From a virus, in the IMG/VR virus record IMGVR_UViG_3300027826_000006: a DNA stretch of 38,364 bases. One strand, 5' to 3'. The position numbers and the translations under genes were made by a program. Of this stretch, positions 28,040-36,712 are shown piece after piece. A model generated the notes under the pieces. It was not told where the DNA came from. It made no database searches and saw nothing but the letters and a program-made list of their open reading frames with translations. Position 1 is the stretch's first letter, and the number at the start of each line of letters is the position of its first letter.

Positions 28040-28116
28040 TCCAGTCTAGCTTAATTCGGTAGAGCATCGTCCTGTTAAGACGGGTGGTCTCGGTTCGAGT
28101 CCGAGGGCTGGAGCCA
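28040..28116 (+). tRNA. tRNA-Asn (GTT)
   Basis: Manual cloverleaf: acceptor TCCAGTC/GGCTGGA, anticodon loop CTGTTAA, T-arm CTCGG-TTCGAGT-CCGAG, CCA encoded. Confidence 0.8.
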
Positions 28117-28126
28117 ATTTTAGAGT

Positions 28127-28200
28127 GCCAGATTCGGCCAACGGTAGGCCGGTTGCCTCATGAACAACCTATTCCAGTTCGACTCTGGAATCTGGCACCA
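28127..28200 (+). tRNA. tRNA-Met (CAT), elongator-like
   Basis: Acceptor GCCAGAT/ATCTGGC, loop CTCATGA closed by a C.A mismatch (G37), T-arm TCCAG-TTCGACT-CTGGA, CCA. Confidence 0.6.
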
Positions 28201-28238
28201 AAATTCGTTATTCGCGAATAGCGAACGTGGAGCGAGCC

Positions 28239-28460
28239 ATGTATGACGAACATCCAGCAACGGACAAGGGTTGGCAGCCGCTCGATTTGGACGCGCTGAT
28301 CGAAAAGCAATTGGCTGAATTGAGTGAACAGGCGAAAGAATGGACGCAGCGAATGCGCAACCTACGAAGCGAGTTGCGCCAGATTGGGCGTTAAAAAATT
28401 TAGGTGGATCGCACTGGGCGGCGGGCGAGTCTTATAAACTTGTGATTGCCCTAGATTAGG
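28239..28460 (+). CDS. possible small coiled-coil protein between tRNAs (MYDEHPATDKGWQPLDLDALIEKQLAELSEQAKEWTQRMRNLRSEL...)
   Basis: GGAG 7 nt upstream of the ATG; by my hand translation the frame stays open to 28460 and overlaps the tRNA-like element, yet it is absent from the supplied ORF track, so it is doubtful. Confidence 0.25.
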
Positions 28461-28497
28461 GCGCACGGGATGGTTCGATTCCATCATCCACTACCAA
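28404..28497 (+). tRNA. aberrant tRNA-like element (94 nt): canonical acceptor, T-arm and CCA; candidate anticodon loop CTTATAA (TAT); 15-nt extra hairpin
   Basis: Acceptor GGTGGAT/ATCCACT-A-CCA, T-arm GATGG-TTCGATT-CCATC, stem CGAGT/ACTTG around CTTATAA, hairpin GCCCT-agatt-AGGGC; the D-arm is not canonical. Confidence 0.35.
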
Positions 28498-28498
28498 G

Positions 28499-28576
28499 TG
28501 TTGAGGGGCGGATGGGTAGCGAGCGGTTCAACGGGTAATGCCGGAACGGACGAGGCTTTGGCTGCCCCTCAACTAC
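28499..28576. repeat. 10-bp perfect inverted repeat GTTGAGGGGC ... GCCCCTCAAC enclosing 58 nt
   Basis: Direct inspection; lies between the tRNA-like element and tRNA-Val. Confidence 0.5.
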
Positions 28577-28580
28577 ATGT

Positions 28581-28657
28581 GCGCGGTTAGCTCAACCCGG
28601 TAGAGCCGTTGCCCTACAAGCAACTTGTTGGGAGTTCAAATCTCTCACCGCGCACCA
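28581..28657 (+). tRNA. tRNA-Val (TAC) with C33
   Basis: Acceptor GCGCGGT/ACCGCGC, D-stem GCTC/GAGC, anticodon stem GTTGC/GCAAC, loop CCTACAA, T-arm GGGAG-TTCAAAT-CTCTC, CCA. Confidence 0.7.
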
Positions 28658-29276
28658 ATTTCAGTAAGCCCATGTCCAATTCTTGGTGGTGATTGGGGCA
28701 TAGGCCAATTAGATTCTCCTTGGCGTTGACCACGCTCAATAGGGTGGTTTTGGGAAACGTGGATACCGCCTTGATGTGGCAGCATTCAACATACGTTGAA
28801 TATCCACAGATAGAACAAGCCGCCAACAAGCCAGCGGCAGCGGCTATTTGTTTTGCATGTTGCCTGACGCTTGTATGGTAAACATTGCGACTGCCAGACC
28901 GGAACAAGTCGTTCAAGGTTTTGTTCGGTGCATTGATTCTGTGATTCGCAAGTAAGCAGTTCTTGCAGTATTTGCGGCTGATCCTAATCGGGCCACCACA
29001 ATCTGCACATCTGCCAGTTGGCTGGAGACGAGTTCGCGGTCTCTGATTGTTGGCTGATGCAGCGCATGCCCGCGAACAGTATTTTGGATTCGCCGTTTCG
29101 TTGCTGCAATGGTGGCATCGCCTAACCACTGGCGGAAATCCAGCGCAACAACTGTTGCAGCGCACGCTTTTATGGTTTCGCCGCAAATAACGTTTGTGAT
29201 TTGCGGTTGAACGAAGGAATGGCGATTTGCAAATTGAACATTGGAGTTGAACTGTTTCAGGCATTGGGGCTATCAT
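28614..29276 (-). CDS. HNH endonuclease with N-terminal Cys-rich zinc-finger region
   Basis: CSICGYSTYVECCHIKAVS ... NLIGLCPNHHQELD HNH signature; its C-terminal 44 nt overlap the 3' end of tRNA-Val. Confidence 0.55.
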   Translation of the reverse strand: MIAPMPETVQLQCSICKSPFLRSTANHKRYLRRNHKSVRCNSCCAGFPPVVRRCHHCSNETANPKYCSRACAASANNQRPRTRLQPTGRCADCGGPIRISRKYCKNCLLANHRINAPNKTLNDLFRSGSRNVYHTSVRQHAKQIAAAAGLLAACSICGYSTYVECCHIKAVSTFPKTTLLSVVNAKENLIGLCPNHHQELDMGLLKLVRGERFELPTSCL

Positions 29277-29344
29277 ATTAGATGTGAGAGATGAAACGCC
29301 ATGCCGATTCCATCACGCGGTACCATTTTAGGAGAATGAAAATG

Positions 29345-29536
29345 ATTCAGTACGATCCGCCCAGCGGTTGGAGATACGGCTTCCCGAAAGAGTACAAGCC
29401 GCAGCCGGGAGAAACGCTTGAGCAAACGCTTCTCCGCGATGGCTATCCGCAGAAAGAAATTGATGCTGGCATGGCAAAATATTGCCGCTTCTTGGGGCCG
29501 AAAGAAGAACTGAATGCGTTGTTTTCTGGAACTTAA
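29345..29536 (+). CDS. hypothetical small protein (63 aa)
   Basis: Second ATG after AGGAGA RBS (MIQYDPPSGWRYGFPKEY...). Confidence 0.4.
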   Translation: MQYDPPSGWRYGFPKEYKPQPGETLEQTLLRDGYPQKEIDAGMAKYCRFLGPKEELNALFSGT

Positions 29537-29752
29537 ATGAAAAAGAAAAGACAGCTTCGCAATTTGGGTGTGTGCGCAAGGTGCGGCGACCCAATTATGA
29601 GTGTCCACGAAGATCGCGAGCACATTGTGGGCACCAGCGCGAAAGATGCCAGAAAGTTGTGCAGTGCGTGCATTTCGCGCTACCATGACAAAAAACTTTG
29701 CATCTGCTCACATTGCAGTGGGCAAGAAAAAGATTATGCCGGTGTCGTCTAA
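29537..29752 (+). CDS. small zinc-ribbon protein (CARCG ... CSACISRYH ... CICSHCSG)
   Basis: ATG directly after the upstream TAA; its 3' end overlaps the next tRNA by about 15 nt. Confidence 0.4.
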   Translation: MKKKRQLRNLGVCARCGDPIMSVHEDREHIVGTSAKDARKLCSACISRYHDKKLCICSHCSGQEKDYAGVV

Positions 29753-29811
29753 TGGCAAGGCCCGCGCCCGATTAGCGCGAGACGTTGGTTCGATTCCAGC
29801 CACCGGTACCA
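29738..29811 (+). tRNA. tRNA-Ile-like (GAT) with atypical loop CCGATTA (C33, U37)
   Basis: Acceptor GCCGGTG/CACCGGT, D-stem GTCT/AGGC, anticodon stem CGCGC/GCGCG, T-arm GTTGG-TTCGATT-CCAGC, CCA. Confidence 0.55.
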
Positions 29812-29899
29812 TTTTTATGATTGAAACATTCATCAGAGACGGCACAACCTACCGCATCCTGAGTGGCGAAGATGCGGAGCGTGCAATGGAACGCAATAT

Positions 29900-29976
29900 G
29901 CGCGATTGGCAGAGACGGCCTATGCACTTGACTCTTAATCAAGACGACGCTGGTTCGATTCCAGCATCGCGCACCA
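29900..29976 (+). tRNA. tRNA-Lys (CTT)
   Basis: Acceptor GCGCGAT/ATCGCGC, anticodon stem CTTGA/TCAAG, loop CTCTTAA, T-arm GCTGG-TTCGATT-CCAGC, CCA. Confidence 0.8.
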
Positions 29977-29978
29977 AT

Positions 29979-30059
29979 GGGGGTATGGCAGAGTCAGGAC
30001 TATTGCATCCGCCTTTTAAGCGGAACATAACGTAGGTTCAAATCCTACTGCCCCCACCA
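29979..30059 (+). tRNA. tRNA-Lys (TTT) with 11-nt D-loop and 7-nt variable loop
   Basis: Acceptor GGGGGTA/TGCCCCC, anticodon stem TCCGC/GCGGA, loop CTTTTAA, T-arm GTAGG-TTCAAAT-CCTAC, CCA. Confidence 0.65.
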
Positions 30060-30073
30060 AATTTGAGGAAACC

Positions 30074-30409
30074 ATGAAAAACATAAAACTGAAAATAAAG
30101 AAACAGGCTTGCGAAGTCATGCTGGTTGAGTTGACCGGCGAATACGAAGATGGCGTGAAATTCGTCCGCGAATTGAACTTCAGCGGCAATGCCACGTCAA
30201 CCGTGCTGTACGGGGCGCGATTGGTGCTGGACGCGCTTGCGGAATTGGAGGCCCGCGAATACCAAGATAAGTTTCAGGCGGCCTCTCAAGCATTCGCTAA
30301 ACTGAAGTCGCTCACTAAGGCAGTTCCGGCTGGAGAGTGGACACCGGAGTACCGGGCGCTGGCAGAGGCAATCCACAACATGGGCCGCGAAGTGTTCTAC
30401 GTGGAGTAA
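30074..30409 (+). CDS. hypothetical protein (111 aa)
   Basis: RBS TGAGGAAACC-ATG. Confidence 0.5.
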   Translation: MKNIKLKIKKQACEVMLVELTGEYEDGVKFVRELNFSGNATSTVLYGARLVLDALAELEAREYQDKFQAASQAFAKLKSLTKAVPAGEWTPEYRALAEAIHNMGREVFYVE

Positions 30410-30412
30410 GTT

Positions 30413-30919
30413 ATGAAAACACCAGCAGTCGTTTTAGTGAATCCGAAATATCCGCACAATTTCGCGGCGGCAATACGCGCGTGTTCATGCTTCGGCGTAG
30501 AAGAATTGCTCTACACCGGCGACCGCATGGACATCAGGCCCAACGAGCGCTTGCCGCGCGAGGAGCGGATGAAGGGGTACGCGGCGGTTAGCTGGCGGCG
30601 CGAAGATCGCCCACTTGGCCTCCTTGGCACACCGGTTTGCGTAGAAGTCATGGAGAACAGTGAGCCGCTGACTACATTTGAGCATCCACTTGATGCCATC
30701 TATGTTTTTGGGCCAGAGGATGGCGGGGTGCCGCAAACATTCCGGCAGCACTGTCACCGCTTCGTCCACATTCCGGCGCATCACTGCCTGAATCTGGCTG
30801 CGGCAATCAATGTGGTGCTGTCGCACCGAATGATGCAGTTGAATCCAACGCTGCCACTGAGTGAAGTTCTTCACGAAACGCGCGGAGAATTAGCAGTGGC
30901 AGGGTGGGATGGCAAGTAG
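30413..30919 (+). CDS. SpoU/TrmH-family (SPOUT) RNA 2'-O-methyltransferase, TrmL-like size
   Basis: VVLVNPKYPHNFAAAIRACSCFGVEELLYTG, IYVFGPEDGGVPQ, HIPAHHCLNLAAAINVVL match the SpoU motifs. Confidence 0.6.
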   Translation: MKTPAVVLVNPKYPHNFAAAIRACSCFGVEELLYTGDRMDIRPNERLPREERMKGYAAVSWRREDRPLGLLGTPVCVEVMENSEPLTTFEHPLDAIYVFGPEDGGVPQTFRQHCHRFVHIPAHHCLNLAAAINVVLSHRMMQLNPTLPLSEVLHETRGELAVAGWDGK

Positions 30920-30993
30920 GGCCGCTTCATCCAACAGGAAAGGATCAGCACTTCTAATGCTGAAACGGCAGTTCGAGCCTGCCAGCGGCTTCC
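30919..30993 (+). tRNA. tRNA-Arg (TCT)
   Basis: Acceptor GGCCGCT/AGCGGCT, anticodon stem CAGCA/TGCTG, loop CTTCTAA, T-arm GGCAG-TTCGAGC-CTGCC, CCA. Confidence 0.7.
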
Positions 30994-31128
30994 ATTATAA
31001 TGTTCTTGGCCGGGACGGTTTCACCGGGCATCGCGTATAAAGGGAACAGGCGATGATGCTGCGACCTGCCGCTGGCGGTTGCGCTTTTCACTGCCGCCGA
31101 AAGAGCGTGGAATGTTCCCGGCCTTAAC

Positions 31129-31216
31129 GGGGGCGTGGTCTGAATTGGATTAGGCACTGCGCTACGAACGCAGATCGCGAAAGCGGATGCAGGTTCGAGT
31201 CCTGCCGCCCCTACCA
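31129..31216 (+). tRNA. tRNA-Arg (ACG) on a type-II (long variable arm) body
   Basis: Acceptor GGGGGCG/CGCCCCT, 3-bp D-stem with 12-nt D-loop, anticodon stem CTGCG/CGCAG, loop CTACGAA, 15-nt variable arm ATCGCGAAAGCGGAT, T-arm GCAGG-TTCGAGT-CCTGC, A73, CCA. Confidence 0.6.
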
Positions 31217-31222
31217 TATTTT

Positions 31223-31297
31223 GCCCGCGTAGTGTAAAGCAGAACACGGCTTCCTCCTAAGAAGCAAATCCGGGTTGAATTCCCGGCGTGGGTACCA
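31223..31297 (+). tRNA. tRNA-Arg (CCT)
   Basis: Acceptor GCCCGCG/CGTGGGT (two G.U), D-stem GTGT/ACAC, anticodon stem GCTTC/GAAGC, loop CTCCTAA, T-arm CCGGG-TTGAATT-CCCGG, CCA. Confidence 0.7.
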
Positions 31298-31299
31298 TT

Positions 31300-31375
31300 G
31301 GGCCGCTGGGGTAACGCACGAACCCGGCAGATTCCGAATCTGCAAATCCGAGTTGGATTCTCGGGCGGCCTACCA
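31300..31375 (+). tRNA. tRNA-Arg (CCG)
   Basis: Acceptor GGGCCGC/GCGGCCT, D-stem GGGT/ACCC, anticodon stem GCAGA/TCTGC, loop TTCCGAA, T-arm CCGAG-TTGGATT-CTCGG, CCA. Confidence 0.7.
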
Positions 31376-31575
31376 TTTTTCGCTTGACAAGTTTCGCCCA
31401 TTACCCCATACTCCTTACATGATTCGTTTCACCCATAGCGATTGTCCAACACCGCAGGCCGCGACCGGAACGTGGCAGGGCGAGTTTGAACGTATTGCGG
31501 GGTAAGGCGAACTTGTAGGTTCCTTGTAAGCCCCGCCTCAAAAAGCGGGGCTTAATCATTTCTGGGAGAGAGAAA

Positions 31576-31824
31576 ATGATTGATGCAAAGGTTGGGGATG
31601 TGGTTACACGCAATTTGGCTGGAGCGCTCATTGAACTAGAAGTCACCGCCGTGGATGACAAATTCATCTATTGCGGCCCGAAGGGGGTGGGCTGGAAATT
31701 TGACAAATGGACTGGCGCGGAGGTCGATGAGGAACTTGGCTGGGGGCCGCCGCCAAAAATCAGTGGCTCCTTTATCGTCCTAAACAATGCGCCGTATGGC
31801 AAAGTGATGGGCAAGATAGCTTGA
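31576..31824 (+). CDS. hypothetical small protein (82 aa)
   Basis: RBS GGGAGAGAGAAA-ATG; the stop abuts the next tRNA. Confidence 0.5.
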   Translation: MIDAKVGDVVTRNLAGALIELEVTAVDDKFIYCGPKGVGWKFDKWTGAEVDEELGWGPPPKISGSFIVLNNAPYGKVMGKIA

Positions 31825-31898
31825 GCCGGATTCGGCTAGTGGCAGGCCACGTGGTTCTCATCCACAAAACGTGGGTTCGATTCCCGCATCCGGTACCA
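31825..31898 (+). tRNA. tRNA-Glu (CTC)
   Basis: Acceptor GCCGGAT/ATCCGGT, D-stem GGCT/GGCC, loop TTCTCAT, T-arm GTGGG-TTCGATT-CCCGC, CCA. Confidence 0.6.
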
Positions 31899-31899
31899 T

Positions 31900-31979
31900 G
31901 CCGTAGAGCGCAAAGTGGTCGAGCGGCCTGTCTTTCAAGCAGGACATTCTAGCCGGTTCGAGTCCGGTCTACGGCACCA
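31900..31979 (+). tRNA. tRNA-Glu (TTC), 80 nt, A8 and 8-nt variable region
   Basis: Acceptor GCCGTAG/CTACGGC, anticodon stem CCTGT/GCAGG, loop CTTTCAA, T-arm GCCGG-TTCGAGT-CCGGT, CCA. Confidence 0.65.
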
Positions 31980-32164
31980 AATTTTATGATTACATTTTTC
32001 GGAACGCAGATTGAAGTGACAAGTGAACGGCAATGCCAGAGAAGCAGCGCCGATCATCGGGCGCTTGTGCATGAAGCACGGCTTGACAGGCAAAAGACAG
32101 GCCACAACGTGGACGAATCGTATGTGATCTGCGGGCACTGCGTCAAGGCGCTGAGTTTGAAAAT

Positions 32165-32238
32165 TTGAGTGTGGCGGGTTCGGTTAGTGGAAAGCCGCTG
32201 GCCTTTGGCACCAGCTTCGGAGGTTCGATTCCTTCACC
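32165..32238 (+). tRNA. tRNA-Gln (TTG), tentative
   Basis: Acceptor GGCGGGT/ACCCGCT, D-stem GGTT/AGCC, loop CTTTGGC with a C.A closing mismatch, T-arm GGAGG-TTCGATT-CCTTC, G73, CCA. Confidence 0.5.
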
Positions 32239-32239
32239 C

Positions 32240-32313
32240 GCTGCCATAGCGAGTTCGGTTAGTGGCAGGCCCGATGCCTCTGGAGCATCCAGCGGTGGTT
32301 CGATTCCACCACT
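32240..32313 (+). tRNA. tRNA-Gln (CTG)
   Basis: Acceptor AGCGAGT/ACTCGCT, anticodon stem GATGC/GCATC, loop CTCTGGA, T-arm GGTGG-TTCGATT-CCACC, CCA. Confidence 0.6.
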
Positions 32314-32321
32314 CGCTTCCA

Positions 32322-32398
32322 TATTTTACGGGGTGTAAGACGAAGCGGACGAGTCACCTGCCTGTCACGCAGGAGTAAGCCGGTTCAAGTCCGGTACA
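32322..32398 (+). tRNA. tRNA-Asp (GTC)
   Basis: Acceptor GGGGTGT/ACATCCC, anticodon stem CCTGC/GCAGG, loop CTGTCAC, T-arm GCCGG-TTCAAGT-CCGGT, G73, CCA. Confidence 0.7.
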
Positions 32399-32419
32399 TC
32401 CCGCCATAAGTTTGGGGCG

Positions 32420-32442
32420 ATCCACCCTAAAGGTGGGTTTTT
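32420..32442 (+). terminator. rho-independent terminator
   Basis: CCACC-ctaaa-GGTGG hairpin followed by GTTTTTCC. Confidence 0.55.
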
Positions 32443-32568
32443 CCGAGGATGAATTTCCTTGCCCAGTAATGGGCCGATATGTTCGGTTATCGCCCCTCCA
32501 CATCGGAGAACGATGAGCATCTTTGAGGATATAGACGAAATGAAATGGATTGAATGGTTCAACAAAAT

Positions 32569-32645
32569 GGGAGCGTCGGTTAATCAGCGCAAACCATCGG
32601 ACTCCAAACCCGAGACTCCCGGTTCAAATCCGGGCGCTCCCGCCA
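32569..32645 (+). tRNA. tRNA-Trp (CCA)
   Basis: Acceptor GGGAGCG/CGCTCCC, D-stem GGTT/AACC, loop CTCCAAA, T-arm CCCGG-TTCAAAT-CCGGG, G73, CCA. Confidence 0.75.
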
Positions 32646-32707
32646 TCTCTCGGGATGGCTTTTGTCCCAATTGTGGACTTTCATACCCGAACGATTTTGA
32701 CGGCAAC

Positions 32708-32884
32708 ATGGCAGTCGAATGCGACTGTGGCCATAAGTTTACTGTCGTTGGTAGATACGCCATCTCTTGTGCTGCTTGCGGTAAGGAATTGAGCAAGGAA
32801 ACCAACTCCGAGGAATGCCCGGATTCACTGTATTGGCATCGCAAGCACACCGCGATTGTGCTGAATAGGGTTTGTGTTGAGTAA
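32708..32884 (+). CDS. small zinc-ribbon protein (CDCGH ... CAACG); possible remnant of a longer ORF interrupted by tRNA-Trp
   Basis: First in-frame ATG after tRNA-Trp; an upstream in-frame CPNCG motif has no start codon. Confidence 0.3.
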   Translation: MAVECDCGHKFTVVGRYAISCAACGKELSKETNSEECPDSLYWHRKHTAIVLNRVCVE

Positions 32885-32895
32885 AGGGAAAAAGA

Positions 32896-32970
32896 GCGGG
32901 GTTGGCCGACCGGTAAGGCAGTTGGCTTCCACCCAACGATCAGCGGGTTCGATTCCCGCACCCCGCTCCA
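32896..32970 (+). tRNA. tRNA-Gly (TCC)
   Basis: Acceptor GCGGGGT/ACCCCGC, anticodon stem GTTGG/CCAAC, loop CTTCCAC, T-arm GCGGG-TTCGATT-CCCGC, CCA. Confidence 0.75.
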
Positions 32971-33097
32971 AACAACAAGATTTGTTCGGGGGCTACAAAA
33001 GCTGGAGCCTGCTTGATCTGTGGAAAGAGATGGGCGCGATTCGCCGGAGATGTTACGCGAAGCGCATGGAGTGGGAACGGAAGGGGCAATTGATTGT

Positions 33098-33172
33098 GCT
33101 GGGTTCGTCTAGCGGCAAGGATACTGCATTGCCAATGCAGTGACACCAGTTCGAGTCTGGTACCCCGCACCA
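33098..33172 (+). tRNA. tRNA-Gly (GCC)
   Basis: Acceptor GCTGGGT/ACCCCGC (3-70 mismatch), anticodon stem CTGCA/TGCAG, loop TTGCCAA, T-arm ACCAG-TTCGAGT-CTGGT, CCA. Confidence 0.65.
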
Positions 33173-33178
33173 AGTTTT

Positions 33179-33253
33179 GTGCCGTTGACCGAGTGGCTTA
33201 GGTGTATGGCTGCAACCCATACCACGGGTGTTCGATTCACCCACGGCACTCCA
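33179..33253 (+). tRNA. tRNA-Cys (GCA)
   Basis: Acceptor GTGCCGT/ACGGCAC, anticodon stem TATGG/CCATA, loop CTGCAAC, T-arm GGGTG-TTCGATT-CACCC, U73, CCA. Confidence 0.8.
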
Positions 33254-33263
33254 AATTTTTACC

Positions 33264-33644
33264 ATGGCACACTTTGACGAGCACTGTAGAGACTGCGAAC
33301 GATTACTGGGCGACCGACATGAAAAGGTCAACCGGTGGATTGATGAGTTGTTCGCGAAGCATGGCCCAGAACATCGGCGCTATCGGCATCACGGCGGTGG
33401 CGTGCGCGAGGCCCAGAAGAAGTTTGGCGGCGACGCAGCCAAGGCGGCCATCGTACATATCGTCCGCGATTGTGGGCGCGTACCGCTGGCTATGGAGTAT
33501 GACAAGCGCACGCTCTTTGAGTTCGGCGAGAATATAGTAGTCGCCCCGGAGCACTTGCGCTATGACGGGCTGGATGAAACGGCGCGGCAGAAGTTCGACA
33601 AGATTGTGAAAGCGGAGTTTGAAAGATTTGGGTTGCCAGCATAG
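33264..33644 (+). CDS. hypothetical His/Cys-rich protein (HCRDCERLLG ... HRRYRHHGGG)
   Basis: ATG at 33264 (MAHFDEH...); no clear SD; its 3' end overlaps the start of the tRNA-Thr(CGT)-like gene. Confidence 0.45.
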   Translation: MAHFDEHCRDCERLLGDRHEKVNRWIDELFAKHGPEHRRYRHHGGGVREAQKKFGGDAAKAAIVHIVRDCGRVPLAMEYDKRTLFEFGENIVVAPEHLRYDGLDETARQKFDKIVKAEFERFGLPA

Positions 33645-33709
33645 CTCATGAAGTAGAGTGCGTGATTCGTAACCACGCGAACCGGATGCGAGCGCCGGTG
33701 CTGGCTCCA
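33635..33709 (+). tRNA. tRNA-Thr (CGT)-like, degenerate T-loop
   Basis: Acceptor GCCAGCA/TGCTGGC, D-stem GCTC/GAGT, loop TTCGTAA (C.A closing mismatch), 4-bp T-stem with 9-nt loop, U73, CCA; its 3' 15 nt match tRNA-Thr(GGT) in 13 of 15 positions. Confidence 0.45.
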
Positions 33710-33783
33710 GTCAGCGTAGCTCAGTGGCAGAGCAATGGTTCGGTAAACCATCGACTCGGTTTCGATTACCGACGCTGGCTCCA
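33710..33783 (+). tRNA. tRNA-Thr (GGT) with C33
   Basis: Acceptor GTCAGCG/CGCTGGC, D-stem GCTC/GAGC, anticodon stem ATGGT/ACCAT, loop TCGGTAA, T-arm TCGGT-TTCGATT-ACCGA, CCA. Confidence 0.7.
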
Positions 33784-33788
33784 TTTTG

Positions 33789-33865
33789 GCAGGCGTGGCT
33801 CAGTCAGCGACAGCACGTGCCTTGTAAGCACGCAATCGGGAGCGCACATCTCCCCGCCTGCTCCA
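33789..33865 (+). tRNA. tRNA-Thr (TGT) with non-canonical T-loop CGCACAT
   Basis: Acceptor GCAGGCG/CGCCTGC, anticodon stem CGTGC/GCACG, loop CTTGTAA, T-stem GGGAG/CTCCC, CCA. Confidence 0.65.
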
Positions 33866-33872
33866 GTTTTAT

Positions 33873-33947
33873 GGTGTCTATCGTTCAATAGTAGGACGGC
33901 GGATTGTGGCTCCGCCAACGTCGGGGCAGAACCGACTAGACACCCCA
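33873..33947 (+). tRNA. tRNA-His (GTG) with encoded G-1 and C73; non-canonical T-loop GGCAGAA
   Basis: G-1 at 33873 pairs with C73; acceptor GTGTCTA/TAGACAC, anticodon stem GCGGA/TCCGC, loop TTGTGGC, T-stem GTCGG/CCGAC, CCA. Confidence 0.75.
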
Positions 33948-33958
33948 AAAGTTTAAGC

Positions 33959-34336
33959 ATGGGGAAACTAGCGAAGCGCGACTATAACAGGAGACGGCGG
34001 GAAAGAAACAAGGCAGTTGCCGATAAATACGCTGGAGATTGTTGCCATTTCTGTTCATATGAAGCGCGGCTAGTTGTTCATCGCAAAGACGGGATGGAAC
34101 ATAAAAAGTTCCACCTAATGAGCGAACGTGAGTTTTTGGCCGAACTAAAAAGTGGCCAATATGTGAGAGTTTGTTTCCGTTGCCACAAGGCAGTCCATTG
34201 GTGCATGACGTATTTAAGACTGAACTGGAATCAGATAACGGAAATGTGGGCCGGTAGCATAACGGGAATGCGCTCGGTTTGCACCCGAGGAGATGGGGTT
34301 CGACTCCCCCCGTGTCCACCAGATTTGGCCGTTTAA
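33959..34336 (+). CDS. HNH endonuclease (CCHFC ... HRKDG ... N ... CFRCHKAVH)
   Basis: ATG at 33959 just after tRNA-His; HNH motif; the ORF reads through the tRNA-Ala-like element to a stop at 34334-34336. Confidence 0.5.
   Translation: MGKLAKRDYNRRRRERNKAVADKYAGDCCHFCSYEARLVVHRKDGMEHKKFHLMSEREFLAELKSGQYVRVCFRCHKAVHWCMTYLRLNWNQITEMWAGSITGMRSVCTRGDGVRLPPCPPDLAV
34248..34321 (+). tRNA. tRNA-Ala (TGC)-like with imperfect acceptor stem (possible pseudo-tRNA)
   Basis: D-arm GCAT-aacggga-ATGC, anticodon stem CTCGG/CCGAG, loop TTTGCAC, T-arm TGGGG-TTCGACT-CCCCC, CCA; the acceptor GGGCCGG vs CGTGTCC pairs at only 5 of 7. Confidence 0.4.
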
Positions 34337-34403
34337 CATTGATAGTCAATGTGCTCCCCTGAAGAGGGAGAAAATCTGGCGCAATACCAGAAGCGGCCAC
34401 CAT

Positions 34404-34479
34404 CGGAGCGTAGCCTAGTGGACGAGGCACTTGTTTCGGGAACAAGTTCACAGGAGTTCGATTCTCCTCGCTCCGACCA
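34404..34479 (+). tRNA. tRNA-Pro (CGG)
   Basis: Acceptor CGGAGCG/CGCTCCG, D-stem GCCT/AGGC, anticodon stem CTTGT/ACAAG, loop TTCGGGA, T-arm AGGAG-TTCGATT-CTCCT, CCA. Confidence 0.8.
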
Positions 34480-34485
34480 CTTTTT

Positions 34486-34559
34486 CGGGATGTAGCTGGA
34501 AGGTCTAGCCCGTGCCTTGGGCGCACGTGACGGGGGTTCGATTCCCCCTATCCCGACCA
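34486..34559 (+). tRNA. tRNA-Pro (TGG)
   Basis: Acceptor CGGGATG/TATCCCG, anticodon stem CGTGC/GCACG, loop CTTGGGC, T-arm GGGGG-TTCGATT-CCCCC, CCA. Confidence 0.8.
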
Positions 34560-34575
34560 TTTATAATGCGCGAAT

Positions 34576-35083
34576 GGTTATTCGCGTAACATTAAGCCAC
34601 AGCCAACTGCATTACGCATACCAGACTGGTCTGTATCGCCACATGCGATCACTGGAGAAGGGCCACAGGCCAGACTGGCAGGACGGAACTGAGGTTTGTA
34701 ACCACATGCACGGCGCGGCCTGTGAATGCGCGTGGCATAAATGGTTAGGCATCTTTTGGCACGCTCCTGTCGATGAGTTCAAGGCGCAAGACGCAGTGGG
34801 CGGCATCCAAATTAGATCATCGCCACAAAGAAAGCCATTCTGGAAAGTAAAACCAAGCGACCCCGACGACCAAACGGCTGTCTTTTTCGCATCAGGCGAA
34901 TTGACGCACTATATCGTCGGATACATACCCATCATCGAAGCCAAACGCTTTCCCTTGGTCGATCCGGGCGGCAGAAACGTGTACTGCCATCAGGTTAAAC
35001 GCGAACAAATGTACACCGACTTCGCCAGTTTGCGCGAAACCGTACTAGCCAAGCATAAAATGATGGAATCCGTGTCCATTTAA
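34576..35083 (+). CDS. hypothetical His/Cys-containing protein (169 aa)
   Basis: First ATG after tRNA-Pro, embedded in the inverted repeat CGCGAAT-ggtt-ATTCGCG; no clear SD. Confidence 0.4.
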
Positions 35084-35113
35084 TGGTAATCTGATCCTTG
35101 GAGGGAATTACAG

Positions 35114-35494
35114 ATGAGAACATTGCTGGTGCAGGGCGAGAAGGTATTCAAAATCGAAATCCCCGACGATGCCAAAGTGACGTTCGGCCCGTGGAGTCCG
35201 CCGAATAAAAACGGGCAGTACGGCGACTACAAGGCTGTCGGCACGCTGCGCATCTATCGCGGAACCAAAGACAACATCATTGCCTGCTTTTCTGGCGTGG
35301 GCGGCTTCCGCGATATCACCATGGGCTATATGGAACAGGTTGCCAAAGAAGAAGGCGCAACCATGTGGAAAAGCGATCAGAAGGGCTATGTGCGCGAGGA
35401 GAAAGTAGCCGTGGCCAATGAGTGGGTGAATCCGCAACTCCCGGCTGCACCAGCGCCGAAGCCCAGAAAGAAGACCAAGAAAAATGGTGATTGA
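35114..35494 (+). CDS. hypothetical protein (126 aa), Lys-rich C-terminus
   Basis: RBS GGAGGGAATTACAG-ATG. Confidence 0.5.
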   Translation: MRTLLVQGEKVFKIEIPDDAKVTFGPWSPPNKNGQYGDYKAVGTLRIYRGTKDNIIACFSGVGGFRDITMGYMEQVAKEEGATMWKSDQKGYVREEKVAVANEWVNPQLPAAPAPKPRKKTKKNGD

Positions 35495-35702
35495 AATCGT
35501 TTTGCGCTCCAACGGAATGGCGAATGCCGAACCGCCGACCAAGTTCACTATCAAGAATGTGGACACGGTTGAGTTCGATGTCGATCATCCCGACGTTCTG
35601 TGTGTCCACGATATGGACGGCTGTTCCGTCGCCGACTTCCGCGATTGGGCATACTGGCGCAAGGTCGGCGAAGATCACACCGGCGAGACAGAAATCTCTT
35701 GA
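35484..35702 (+). CDS. hypothetical acidic protein (72 aa)
   Basis: ORF overlapping the upstream stop. Confidence 0.4.
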   Translation: MVIEIVLRSNGMANAEPPTKFTIKNVDTVEFDVDHPDVLCVHDMDGCSVADFRDWAYWRKVGEDHTGETEIS

Positions 35703-35728
35703 CAGAGTTTCGCGCGTAGTGCTTTAAT
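35699..35728 (+). promoter_or_regulatory. sigma70-like promoter TTGACA-N18-TTTAAT ahead of the second tRNA block
   Basis: Consensus -35; A/T-rich -10 at the right spacing. Confidence 0.4.
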
Positions 35729-35734
35729 CAGAAT

Positions 35735-35812
35735 CGCGGGGATTGAGCTACGTTGCGCTCGGTGGTCTCATAAGCCATCCCGTATTTGGTTAAACTCCAA
35801 ACTCCGCAACCA
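35735..35812 (+). tRNA. initiator-like tRNA-fMet (CAT): C1.A72 mismatch; acceptor CGCGGGG/CTCCGCA-A-CCA matches the E. coli fMet pattern
   Basis: D-stem GAGC/GCTC, anticodon stem with G.U pairs, loop CTCATAA, T-arm TTTGG-TTAAACT-CCAAA (non-canonical loop), A73, CCA. Confidence 0.55.
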
Positions 35813-35988
35813 TTTGATTTTGGGGCCAGCCCGTCGCATTAGCGTAGTGGCGAGTGGAGGCGTTTAAGGCGTTAATCGCCTCCCGGCCCCAACAGAAAAA
35901 ATCCAATGACTATCCTACGATCATTGCGACTCTCGAACATCAGTCGATCCCGACTGAGCAGTTATTTATCCCCCTGTAAAAATTTAGT

Positions 35989-36065
35989 GCGGCGCTAGGC
36001 AAACTGGAAAAGCCGGTCGATTCAAAATCCACTGTTTTGGGGTTCGACTCCCCAGCGCCGTACCA
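35989..36065 (+). tRNA. tRNA-Leu (CAA) on a type-I body (5-nt variable loop)
   Basis: Acceptor GCGGCGC/GCGCCGT, 3-bp D-stem with 11-nt D-loop, anticodon stem GTCGA/TCCAC (one mismatch), loop TTCAAAA, T-arm TGGGG-TTCGACT-CCCCA, A73, CCA. Confidence 0.55.
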
Positions 36066-36079
36066 AATGTTTGCAGGTT

Positions 36080-36156
36080 GCCAGAATGCGCGAACTGGAA
36101 TAGCGGGCCGCCTTAAGAGCGGCTGTTTGTGGGTTCGACTCCCACTTCTGGCACCA
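36080..36156 (+). tRNA. tRNA-Leu (TAA) on a type-I body (5-nt variable loop)
   Basis: Acceptor GCCAGAA/TTCTGGC, 3-bp D-stem CGC/GCG with 11-nt D-loop, anticodon stem GCCGC/GCGGC, loop CTTAAGA, T-arm GTGGG-TTCGACT-CCCAC, A73, CCA. Confidence 0.65.
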
Positions 36157-36159
36157 AAC

Positions 36160-36250
36160 GGAAGCGTAGGGAAATTGGTTAACCCAGCAGTTCGCTAAAC
36201 TGCCAAGGCCCAAAAAGGCCGTCCGCGTTCGAGTCGCGGCGCTTCCGCCA
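36160..36250 (+). tRNA. tRNA-Ser (GCT), type II, with C33
   Basis: Acceptor GGAAGCG/CGCTTCC, anticodon stem GCAGT/ACTGC, loop TCGCTAA, 19-nt variable arm, T-arm CCGCG-TTCGAGT-CGCGG, G73, CCA. Confidence 0.75.
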
Positions 36251-36251
36251 C

Positions 36252-36339
36252 GGAGAGCACGGGGATATGGACTCCCGAACCCGTTTGAAGCGGGTCGCGC
36301 CTGAAAGGGCTGGCCGTTCGAGTCGGCTGCTCTCCTCCA
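36252..36339 (+). tRNA. tRNA-Ser (TGA), type II
   Basis: Acceptor GGAGAGC/GCTCTCC, anticodon stem ACCCG/CGGGT, loop TTTGAAG, 16-nt variable arm, T-arm GGCCG-TTCGAGT-CGGCT, CCA. Confidence 0.75.
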
Positions 36340-36351
36340 GTTTGGAAGTAC

Positions 36352-36437
36352 GGTGGAATGGCTGAACGGTAAAAGCACCTGCTTGGAAAGCAGGAGTTCC
36401 CGCAAGGGGCGCGTGCGTTCGACTCGCACTTCCACCG
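36352..36437 (+). tRNA. tRNA-Ser (GGA), type II (3' tail GCCC, CCA not encoded)
   Basis: Acceptor GGTGGAA/TTCCACC, anticodon stem CCTGC/GCAGG, loop TTGGAAA, 18-nt variable arm, T-arm GTGCG-TTCGACT-CGCAC, G73. Confidence 0.7.
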
Positions 36438-36439
36438 CC

Positions 36440-36531
36440 CGAGGAAAGCGCCGATGGTCGGCAACTACGCTCGAAACGTGGGCCTACGTCGCGAATGCGG
36501 CATGACGGTTCGATTCCGTTTTCCTCGCCCA
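36440..36531 (+). tRNA. tRNA-Ser (CGA), type II
   Basis: Acceptor CGAGGAA/TTCCTCG, anticodon stem CTACG/CGTGG, loop CTCGAAA, 22-nt variable arm, T-arm GACGG-TTCGATT-CCGTT, CCA. Confidence 0.7.
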
Positions 36532-36536
36532 GTTTT

Positions 36537-36624
36537 GCACGTTTGGCAGAGCGGCAATTGCGTCTGACTGTAGATCAGATGCCCCATAGGGGCTACGAGG
36601 GTTCGAGTCCTTCAGCGTGCACCA
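36537..36624 (+). tRNA. tRNA-Tyr (GTA), type II
   Basis: Acceptor GCACGTT/AGCGTGC, anticodon stem TCTGA/TCAGA, loop CTGTAGA, 16-nt variable arm GCCCC-ata-GGGGC, T-arm GAGGG-TTCGAGT-CCTTC, A73, CCA. Confidence 0.8.
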
Positions 36625-36629
36625 GTTGT

Positions 36630-36712
36630 GCCGGTATGGTGGAATTGGCAGACACACCTGTCTTAGGAACAGGCGCTTCGGCGTGGGGGTTCAAGTCCCT
36701 CTACCGGTACCA
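36630..36712 (+). tRNA. tRNA-Leu (TAG) with 11-nt variable arm
   Basis: Acceptor GCCGGTA/TACCGGT, 3-bp D-stem with 11-nt D-loop, anticodon stem CCTGT/ACAGG, loop CTTAGGA, T-arm GGGGG-TTCAAGT-CCCTC, A73, CCA. Confidence 0.75.

Follow-up and report, generated by a model that had tools for sequence, protein, structure and literature searches.

The window, i.e., the whole stretch of 38,364 nucleotides analysed here (IMG/VR virus record IMGVR_UViG_3300027826_000006), carries two tRNA genes with the leucine anticodons CAA and TAA from which the long variable arm of class-II tRNALeu is missing, and the question is what such genes are. The first-pass annotation read them, together with a supposed class-II chimera with the Arg(ACG) anticodon, as a sign that the phage uses tRNA bodies and anticodons in non-standard combinations. 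The observation is confirmed by the analysis, while its interpretation is supported only in part: the genes are armless Leu tRNAs and not anticodon/body chimeras. As far as can be judged from sequence, both are most probably genuine and functional tRNAs of the armless (type I) form, belonging to a lineage of phages, plasmids, and long bacterial tRNA arrays. The features of the locus are collected in Table 1.

Table 1. Positions of the two armless tRNALeu genes, their parts, and other features of the window
Feature	Position	Strand	Basis and remarks
tRNA array, same strand	28040-36712	+	32 ARAGORN calls and 3 found by Rfam only
tRNA with anticodon TAT	28403-28496	+	94 nt
HNH endonuclease ORF in the array	28614-29276	-	PHROG and Pfam HNH
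SpoU/SPOUT-type RNA 2'-O-methyltransferase ORF in the array	30413-30919	+	168 aa; Pfam PF00588
tRNA-Arg(acg)	31129-31216	+	88 nt
tRNA-Thr(cgt)	33635-33706	+	Rfam only
tRNA-Thr(tgt)	33789-33862	+	Rfam only
tRNA-His(gtg)	33874-33944	+	Rfam only
GC-rich extended hairpin	35826-35892	+	
tRNA-Leu(CAA), class I	35989-36065	+	ARAGORN; Rfam tRNA, 49.8 bits, full model; alignment member
Leu(CAA), D arm	35998-36014		
Leu(CAA), anticodon	36023-36025		
Leu(CAA), variable loop	36033-36037		TGTTT
Leu(CAA), A73	36062		
Leu(CAA), CCA	36063-36065		
tRNA-Leu(TAA), class I	36080-36156	+	ARAGORN; Rfam tRNA, 53.7 bits, full model
Leu(TAA), D arm	36089-36105		
Leu(TAA), anticodon	36114-36116		
Leu(TAA), variable loop	36124-36128		TGTTT
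Leu(TAA), A73	36153		
Leu(TAA), CCA	36154-36156		
tRNA-Leu(TAG), class II	36630-36712	+	83 nt; ARAGORN; hand parse

Both genes comprise 77 nt including the encoded CCA end, with a 74-nt body according to ARAGORN, and match the Rfam tRNA model with E-values of ~1e-9 to 1e-11 (gathering score 29). The ARAGORN drawing, the covariance-model alignment, and a parse by hand give the same structure for both, a class-I cloverleaf with an acceptor stem of 7 bp, a D stem of 3 bp, and anticodon and T stems of 5 bp each. The 11-nt D loop is AAACTGGAAAA in Leu(CAA) and GAACTGGAATA in Leu(TAA), the D arms being GGC-AAACTGGAAAA-GCC and CGC-GAACTGGAATA-GCG, respectively, and the T loop is TTCGACT in both genes. 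The variable loop, alike in the two, is 5 nt long and ends with T (U48, the pairing partner for A15), and a long arm of at least 10 nt, as in class II, is absent. The Leu-type D arm, A73, the short variable loop, and the total length reported by the first-pass annotation are all borne out by ARAGORN, Rfam, and the parse. A re-fold with a longer variable arm gained by re-assignment of the T stem, an alternative raised in that annotation, is excluded: the covariance-model alignment puts 5 nt at this site, and a 74-nt body is too short to accommodate an arm of at least 10 nt, and a class-II fold therefore cannot be restored. The adjacent Leu(TAG) gene does have the 11-nt arm ascribed to it (CGCTTCGGCGT), and its nearest body neighbours are class-II Leu tRNAs. 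It thus provides an in-genome comparator, class-I and class-II tRNALeu coexisting in one phage.

The two genes are members of a large family, which was searched for with two patterns. Pattern 1, consisting of the D arm and agnostic of the anticodon, matched 14 tRNAs in IMG/VR, all of them with Leu anticodons and 75-78 nt long. Pattern 2 comprises the D arm GCAAAYTGGMAAAGC at the fixed class-I distance from the T loop GTTCRA, the anticodon being free. The CAA gene matches both patterns and the TAA gene pattern 1 only, owing to its variant D arm CGCGAACTGGAATAGCG. Pattern 2 was found in 105 stretches of IMG/VR; in the 71 new viral loci analysed, 69 of the 71 matches lie within tRNAs, each of which has a Leu anticodon (caa 29, tag 28, gag 5, cag 4, and taa 3). 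In bacteria, represented by one genome per species, it was found in at least 120 stretches, and the matches listed come mostly from dense tRNA arrays of Planctomycetota, Actinobacteria, Myxococcota, and Cyanobacteria, the comparator array loci containing up to 39 tRNAs in 8 kb. Among the matches listed, 108 of the 116 bacterial tRNAs have Leu anticodons, the others being six cyanobacterial tRNA-Gln and two tRNAs with irregular anticodon loops; solitary tRNALeu(CAA) genes of Jiangellales, which look like housekeeping genes, are also among them. The armless body thus occurs with each of the five common Leu anticodons and, in two genes, with aag.

A consensus of the family matches 208 cultured-phage records, in which the genes are annotated as tRNA-Leu, the hosts being Mycobacterium (179), Acinetobacter (16), Gordonia (7), Streptomyces (4), Mycolicibacterium (1), and Aeromonas (1). 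It also matches 8 plasmids, and gave no match in 5,426 complete E. coli genomes. Cultured phages with short tRNA-Leu genes comprise mycobacteriophages Bxz2, Wildcat, Bongo, Crossroads, and I3, Acinetobacter phage Acibel004, and Cellulophaga phage phi4:1, and BLAST against cultured phages aligns the window genes without gaps across the variable loop with annotated tRNA-Leu genes, 73-77 nt long, of mycobacteriophages, Acibel004, and phi4:1. The short genes of phages, plasmids, and bacterial arrays have the architecture of the window genes and often also the D arm GGCAAACTGGMAAAGCC, the variable loop TGTTT, the T loop TTCGACT, A73, and, frequently, a G1-U72 pair, and they lie in dense arrays with HNH or homing endonucleases. 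The window genes are 74-83% identical to their nearest relatives in the family, the TAA gene differing in its D arm as mentioned above. The kind is therefore already known and its genes are abundant in databases, the window genes being new and fairly divergent members.

In 2,762 ARAGORN calls from the fetched loci, the ratio of short to long variable regions is 370/70 for Leu, 3/178 for Ser, and 6/62 for Tyr; since a short Leu gene was what these loci were selected for, the Leu ratio exaggerates prevalence, and the prevalence figures as a whole are biased by search patterns derived from the family itself. The long arm is an identity element for SerRS and bacterial TyrRS but not for bacterial LeuRS, and the loss of the arm from Leu tRNAs only matches this difference between the synthetases.

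Several other irregular tRNAs were noticed in the loci collected. Six cyanobacterial loci carry a tRNA-Gln (ttg/ctg) with U1-A72, G73, and a Leu-like D arm CGCAAATTGGCAAAGCG, in several cases also with a TGTTT variable loop; these genes look like Gln acceptor ends on a body common to the armless Leu lineage, and their D arm, being the same, is not an absolute marker of Leu when taken alone. In seven Planctomycetota arrays several tRNAs of different isotypes contain a GC-rich palindromic insert of ~20 nt (e.g., GCACCGCCGCG...GCGGTGGTCGC), situated in or beside the anticodon loop or the variable region. In one further locus the anticodon loop of a Leu-like tRNA is 8 nt long (caag).

The conservation of the class-I fold was assessed in an alignment of 27 distinct members of the family, including both window genes. 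Of its cells, 99.1% pair as the class-I cloverleaf requires, and 18 of the 20 pairs show compensatory changes; none of 500 shuffles reaches the observed values, and in controls with slid positions 38-50% of cells pair. The armless family is under structural selection. This bears on the possibility that one or both window genes are decaying relics, their arm deleted, which are no longer charged. The CAA gene has a C29-C41 mismatch in the anticodon stem, begins with a G1-U72 pair, and in an unconstrained minimum-energy fold does not adopt the cloverleaf (z = -1.6), and the TAA gene carries G37 where tRNAs that read UUR usually have A37; moreover, no close relative of the phage was found in which these exact genes could be seen to be conserved. 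On the other hand, G1-U72 is the commonest first pair in the family (15 of the 27 aligned members), the minimum-energy structure of the TAA gene is the class-I cloverleaf, and the scores of both genes on the general Rfam tRNA model, 50-54 bits, are mid-range among the tRNAs of the array. Both genes also retain U8, A14, G18G19, A73, the T loop, and the CCA end, and compensatory changes maintain the same architecture in hundreds of distinct genes. Decay is therefore a quite improbable explanation.

Apart from the arm, the two genes have what is known of bacterial leucine identity. E. coli LeuRS requires A73, A14, the A15-U48 pair, and a proper placement of G18G19, while the anticodon and the long arm are dispensable (PMC9976931); the arm is likewise dispensable for methylation of C34/U34 by TrmL (PMC4615657), although contact with the long arm has been proposed for M. 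tuberculosis LeuRS (PMC3561953). Leu(CAA) and Leu(TAA) carry A73, A14, A15-U48, and G18G19 at the Leu-typical position. The short genes in general do not differ much from the long ones in this respect: in 332 distinct short versus 77 long Leu genes from the same loci, A73 is found in 99% and 99%, U48 in 98.5% and 96%, and A14A15 in 89% and 94%, respectively, the modal D-arm length is 17 nt in both groups, and the G18G19 offset is identical. For features independent of the search patterns, the figures hold equally in 153 short genes matching neither pattern. The variable region begins with TG in short and long Leu genes alike, and the ends of the class-II variable region (TG...GT or TG...TT) are preserved in the short-loop consensus TG-T-TT. 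Such retention of the class-II flanks fits an origin of the short loop by excision of the variable stem-loop.

The relationships of the bodies point in the same direction. When the acceptor stem, D arm, and T arm were compared with those of 2,342 distinct tRNAs of all isotypes, the 20 closest to the CAA gene were all Leu tRNAs, and so were 19 of the 20 closest to the TAA gene. In a comparison with 300 tRNAs in which the anticodon was masked and the variable region left out, the TAA gene matches best the class-II tRNALeu of phages T2 and T4, and its 3'-terminal 30 nt are 93-97% identical to the tRNALeu genes of T-even phages. The TAA gene and the tRNALeu(UAA) of T2/T4, both of them phage-encoded UUR readers, share six of the seven acceptor pairs, the seventh being compensated, and have identical T stems, D loops of equal length, and T loops with one base different, but the T2/T4 tRNA has a 15-nt variable arm where the window gene has 5 nt. 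As GAA is one base away from CAA and UAA and no tRNA-Phe gene was detected in the window by ARAGORN or Rfam, a Phe-derived body with a mutated anticodon was also considered. It was rejected, since a 3-bp D stem with an 11-nt loop is not of the Phe type, the best Phe neighbour is 62-63% identical as compared with 74-75% for Leu, and there is no Phe gene among the top 20 body-only neighbours. Judged by the known bacterial leucine identity features, present in both genes apart from the arm, neither gene is a chimera. The non-standard combination of bodies and anticodons proposed in the first-pass annotation thus finds no support here, all but the arm being leucine-type and the armless body occurring almost only with Leu anticodons.

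A different possibility is that the class-I bodies are charged by another synthetase and the tRNAs act as recoding agents, inserting an amino acid other than leucine at UUG or UUA. A class-I body with a Leu anticodon is indeed unexpected, and the array contains other odd tRNAs, viz., the long-armed Arg(ACG) and the 94-nt tRNA with the UAU anticodon. Nevertheless, every leucine identity feature tested is present, there is no G3-U70 pair (Ala), long arm (Ser), or Phe-type D arm, and the body is tied to Leu anticodons, all five common ones, in more than 170 independent matches among those listed. The codon usage of the phage speaks to the same point. TTG and TTA account for 22.6% and 6.8%, together 29%, of Leu codons in the 47 ORFs of the window. 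In the phage gene for nicotinamide phosphoribosyltransferase (NAMPT), a conserved enzyme, 7 of the 12 TTG codons fall on columns with at least 81% Leu in 53 homologues of ~60% identity, two of the seven being invariant Leu, while the Leu background in columns under other codons is 3.7%; the test covers TTG, as TTA occurs only once in the gene. TTG on conserved Leu columns indicates standard decoding and argues against recoding of UUG, and altogether recoding is extremely improbable. The window genes are ordinary leucine decoders.

The genes lie in an array of 35 tRNAs spanning 8.7 kb and covering 19 amino acids. The Arg(ACG) gene, adduced in the first-pass annotation as a class-II chimera, is real as a long-armed gene, having a 15-nt variable arm with a 5-bp stem, A73, G1-U72, and G18G19A20 in the D loop, and is the sole long-armed Arg(ACG) among the 2,762 tRNAs. 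However, its body neighbours are mixed (Trp, Leu, and Ser), which makes no clear case for an Arg anticodon on a Leu body, and the gene tells nothing about Leu(CAA) and Leu(TAA). The tRNA with the TAT anticodon has an unusual D arm, and its long variable region contains a conserved hairpin (e.g., CCCTAGATTAGGG); the same design, 92-95 nt long, recurs in more than 10 viral and bacterial array loci, which makes it a family and not a miscall. Three tRNAs missed by default ARAGORN, Thr(cgt), Thr(tgt), and His(gtg), have non-canonical T loops without the TTCGA motif. The extended hairpin (GGGGCC...GGCCCC, with an inner 7-bp stem) is located ~100 nt upstream of Leu(CAA); it has no match in Rfam and its fold is not significant as compared with shuffled sequences (z = -1.9).

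Two protein genes are embedded in the array. TrmL modifies the CAA and UAA isoacceptors of tRNALeu in E. coli, and the SpoU-type ORF was considered as its possible counterpart, but its matches to TrmJ, TrmL, and RlmB are weak, limited to the C-terminal knot motif, and far below the family cut-offs, so no assignment as TrmL was made. The HNH endonuclease ORF has parallels in mobile tRNA arrays, where homing endonucleases have been described (PMC8421152); papers on long arrays and virus tRNA clusters report such endonucleases and a link of the arrays with phages.

Genes beyond the window were read on a 102-kb Logan contig from run SRR5579871. Downstream of the window on this contig (positions 14399-15889 and 16242-17111 of locus L302) are the genes for NAMPT and a ribose-phosphate pyrophosphokinase-like protein, which suggest an NAD salvage module, with RecT, RusA, and a PD-(D/E)XK nuclease encoded nearby. 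No LeuRS gene was found in the ~55 kb of the contig inspected. Close relatives of the phage were found neither among GenBank phages, at the DNA or protein level, nor in IMG/VR with the D-arm sequence of the window; the closest NAMPT homologue (70% identity) belongs to an unrelated phage with no syntenic array. The window tRNAs are 59-80% identical to their best matches, with no recurring locus, and tRNA similarity therefore indicates no host.

The two genes would be transcribed along with the rest of the plus-strand array, and RNase P and 3' nucleases of the host would excise the tRNAs, whose CCA end is encoded. Leucine would then be attached by the leucyl-tRNA synthetase of the host, which presumably reads A73 and the D-loop/elbow elements (A14, A15-U48, and the placement of G18G19) and neither the anticodon nor the arm. 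The CAA tRNA is expected to read UUG, and the UAA tRNA UUA and UUG. The arm could presumably be lost from Leu tRNAs, and not from those for Ser and Tyr, because it is not an identity element for bacterial LeuRS, and the lineage would persist only where the LeuRS of the host accepts type-I substrates.

The precedent for such acceptance is Streptomyces coelicolor, in which a type-I tRNALeu(CAA) with a 5-nt loop exists beside four class-II isoacceptors and a single LeuRS charges both types (PMC6614811). In that tRNA A14 matters and the five nucleotides of the variable loop are the minimum (PMC6614811; Fan et al. 2019, NAR). The window genes are like it in the 5-nt loop, the Leu anticodon, the canonical cloverleaf, and the coexistence with a class-II tRNALeu. 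The S. coelicolor gene, however, is a chromosomal housekeeping gene of the CAA type only, with the loop ACAGC (C48), whereas the window genes, known here from sequence alone, are phage-borne, include a UAA isoacceptor, and have the loop TGTTT, in which U48, and with it the A15-U48 pair, is kept. The S. coelicolor type-I tRNA is not a substrate of E. coli LeuRS, the leucine-specific domain of the enzyme being decisive (PMC6614811), and acceptance by the LeuRS of the host of this phage is therefore not guaranteed. The absence of the family from E. coli agrees with this failure, but it is only a correlation.

Other armless tRNALeu are more remote. Those of animal mitochondria are also class I with A73, and are charged by LeuRS with no need for the arm (PMC9976931). 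Mitochondrial tRNAs, however, have reduced or variable D and T loops and a weak structure, whereas in the window genes the elbow is canonical (G18G19 and the TTCGA T loop), the D arm is of the bacterial Leu type, and there is no sequence relationship to the mitochondrial genes; the nearest neighbours of both window genes are phage and bacterial Leu tRNAs, and a mitochondrial-type elbow is absent. The engineered minimalist tRNALeu of E. coli (PMC9976931) and the 'VLAD' variant of the TrmL study (PMC4615657) are armless as well, but they are laboratory constructs. The view, repeated in the first-pass annotation, that bacterial tRNALeu is class II, with class-I forms known mainly from animal mitochondria, is thus correct as a report of what reviews still state, the long arm being said to occur everywhere but in animal mitochondria (PMC9976931), but it is at odds with S. 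coelicolor (PMC6614811) and with the short tRNA-Leu genes of the cultured phages mentioned above. A full-text literature search, with the paper on tRNAs of cluster-M mycobacteriophages outside its scope, found no description of phage or array tRNALeu as class I; class-I Leu genes are unmentioned in the searchable text of the papers on long arrays and virus tRNA clusters, and a review of non-canonical tRNAs does not mention those of arrays or phages.

That these are probably leucine tRNAs charged as such does not by itself explain why they are armless. The loss could be an adaptation by which the tRNA goes unnoticed by some host factor, e.g., a toxin or a tRNA nuclease of a defence system, that recognises the long arm or the class-II shape, the array thereby keeping translation running when host tRNALeu is attacked; this would refine the reason for the armless form and leave the identity of the tRNAs as it is. 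Consistent with it are the dominance of short Leu genes in phage and array loci as compared with Ser and Tyr, although by their search design these loci are biased to short Leu genes, the occurrence of the armless lineage on mobile elements across several phyla, and the retention by the phage of a class-II Leu(TAG), which implies that the loss of the arm was not forced on every Leu gene. Moreover, a role of tRNA arrays against defence systems or in translational stress has been discussed as a possibility (PMC12803027, PMC8421152). Against it, the solitary copies of Jiangellales are housekeeping-like, as in S. coelicolor, which suits a neutral loss permitted by LeuRS. To our knowledge, no nuclease or toxin targets tRNALeu via the arm, and none was found in this analysis. 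An adaptive origin is therefore considered unlikely, though clearly less so than decay or recoding.

Its broader form, that the armless tRNALeu is the default of mobile tRNA arrays across Actinobacteria, Planctomycetota, Myxococcota, Cyanobacteria, and some Proteobacteria, kept as an adaptive form which escapes a host factor reading class II and ties the arrays to hosts with a LeuRS accepting type I, is likewise doubtful. If true, it would explain the absence of the family from E. coli and would amount to a systematic, undescribed exception to the class-II tRNALeu rule outside animal mitochondria.

With the two genes read as functional armless leucine tRNAs, the suspicion of genetic-code tampering in the window is removed, and what is left is an unusual but recurrent form of tRNA. 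Public sequences of phages, plasmids, and bacteria contain hundreds of genes that contradict the rule of a class-II tRNALeu everywhere except in animal mitochondria, and the family is a broad and little-discussed exception to the textbook, the specific genes of the window being ordinary members of it. Armless Leu tRNAs beside armed Ser and Tyr tRNAs in the examined loci constitute a natural experiment on tRNA identity. The lineage gives handles on the acceptance of type-I substrates by LeuRS, on a possible host-range limit of tRNA arrays, and on a possible protection from tRNA-targeting defence, and experiments on armless tRNALeu are feasible with cultured phages, among them Acibel004, Bxz2, and Wildcat.
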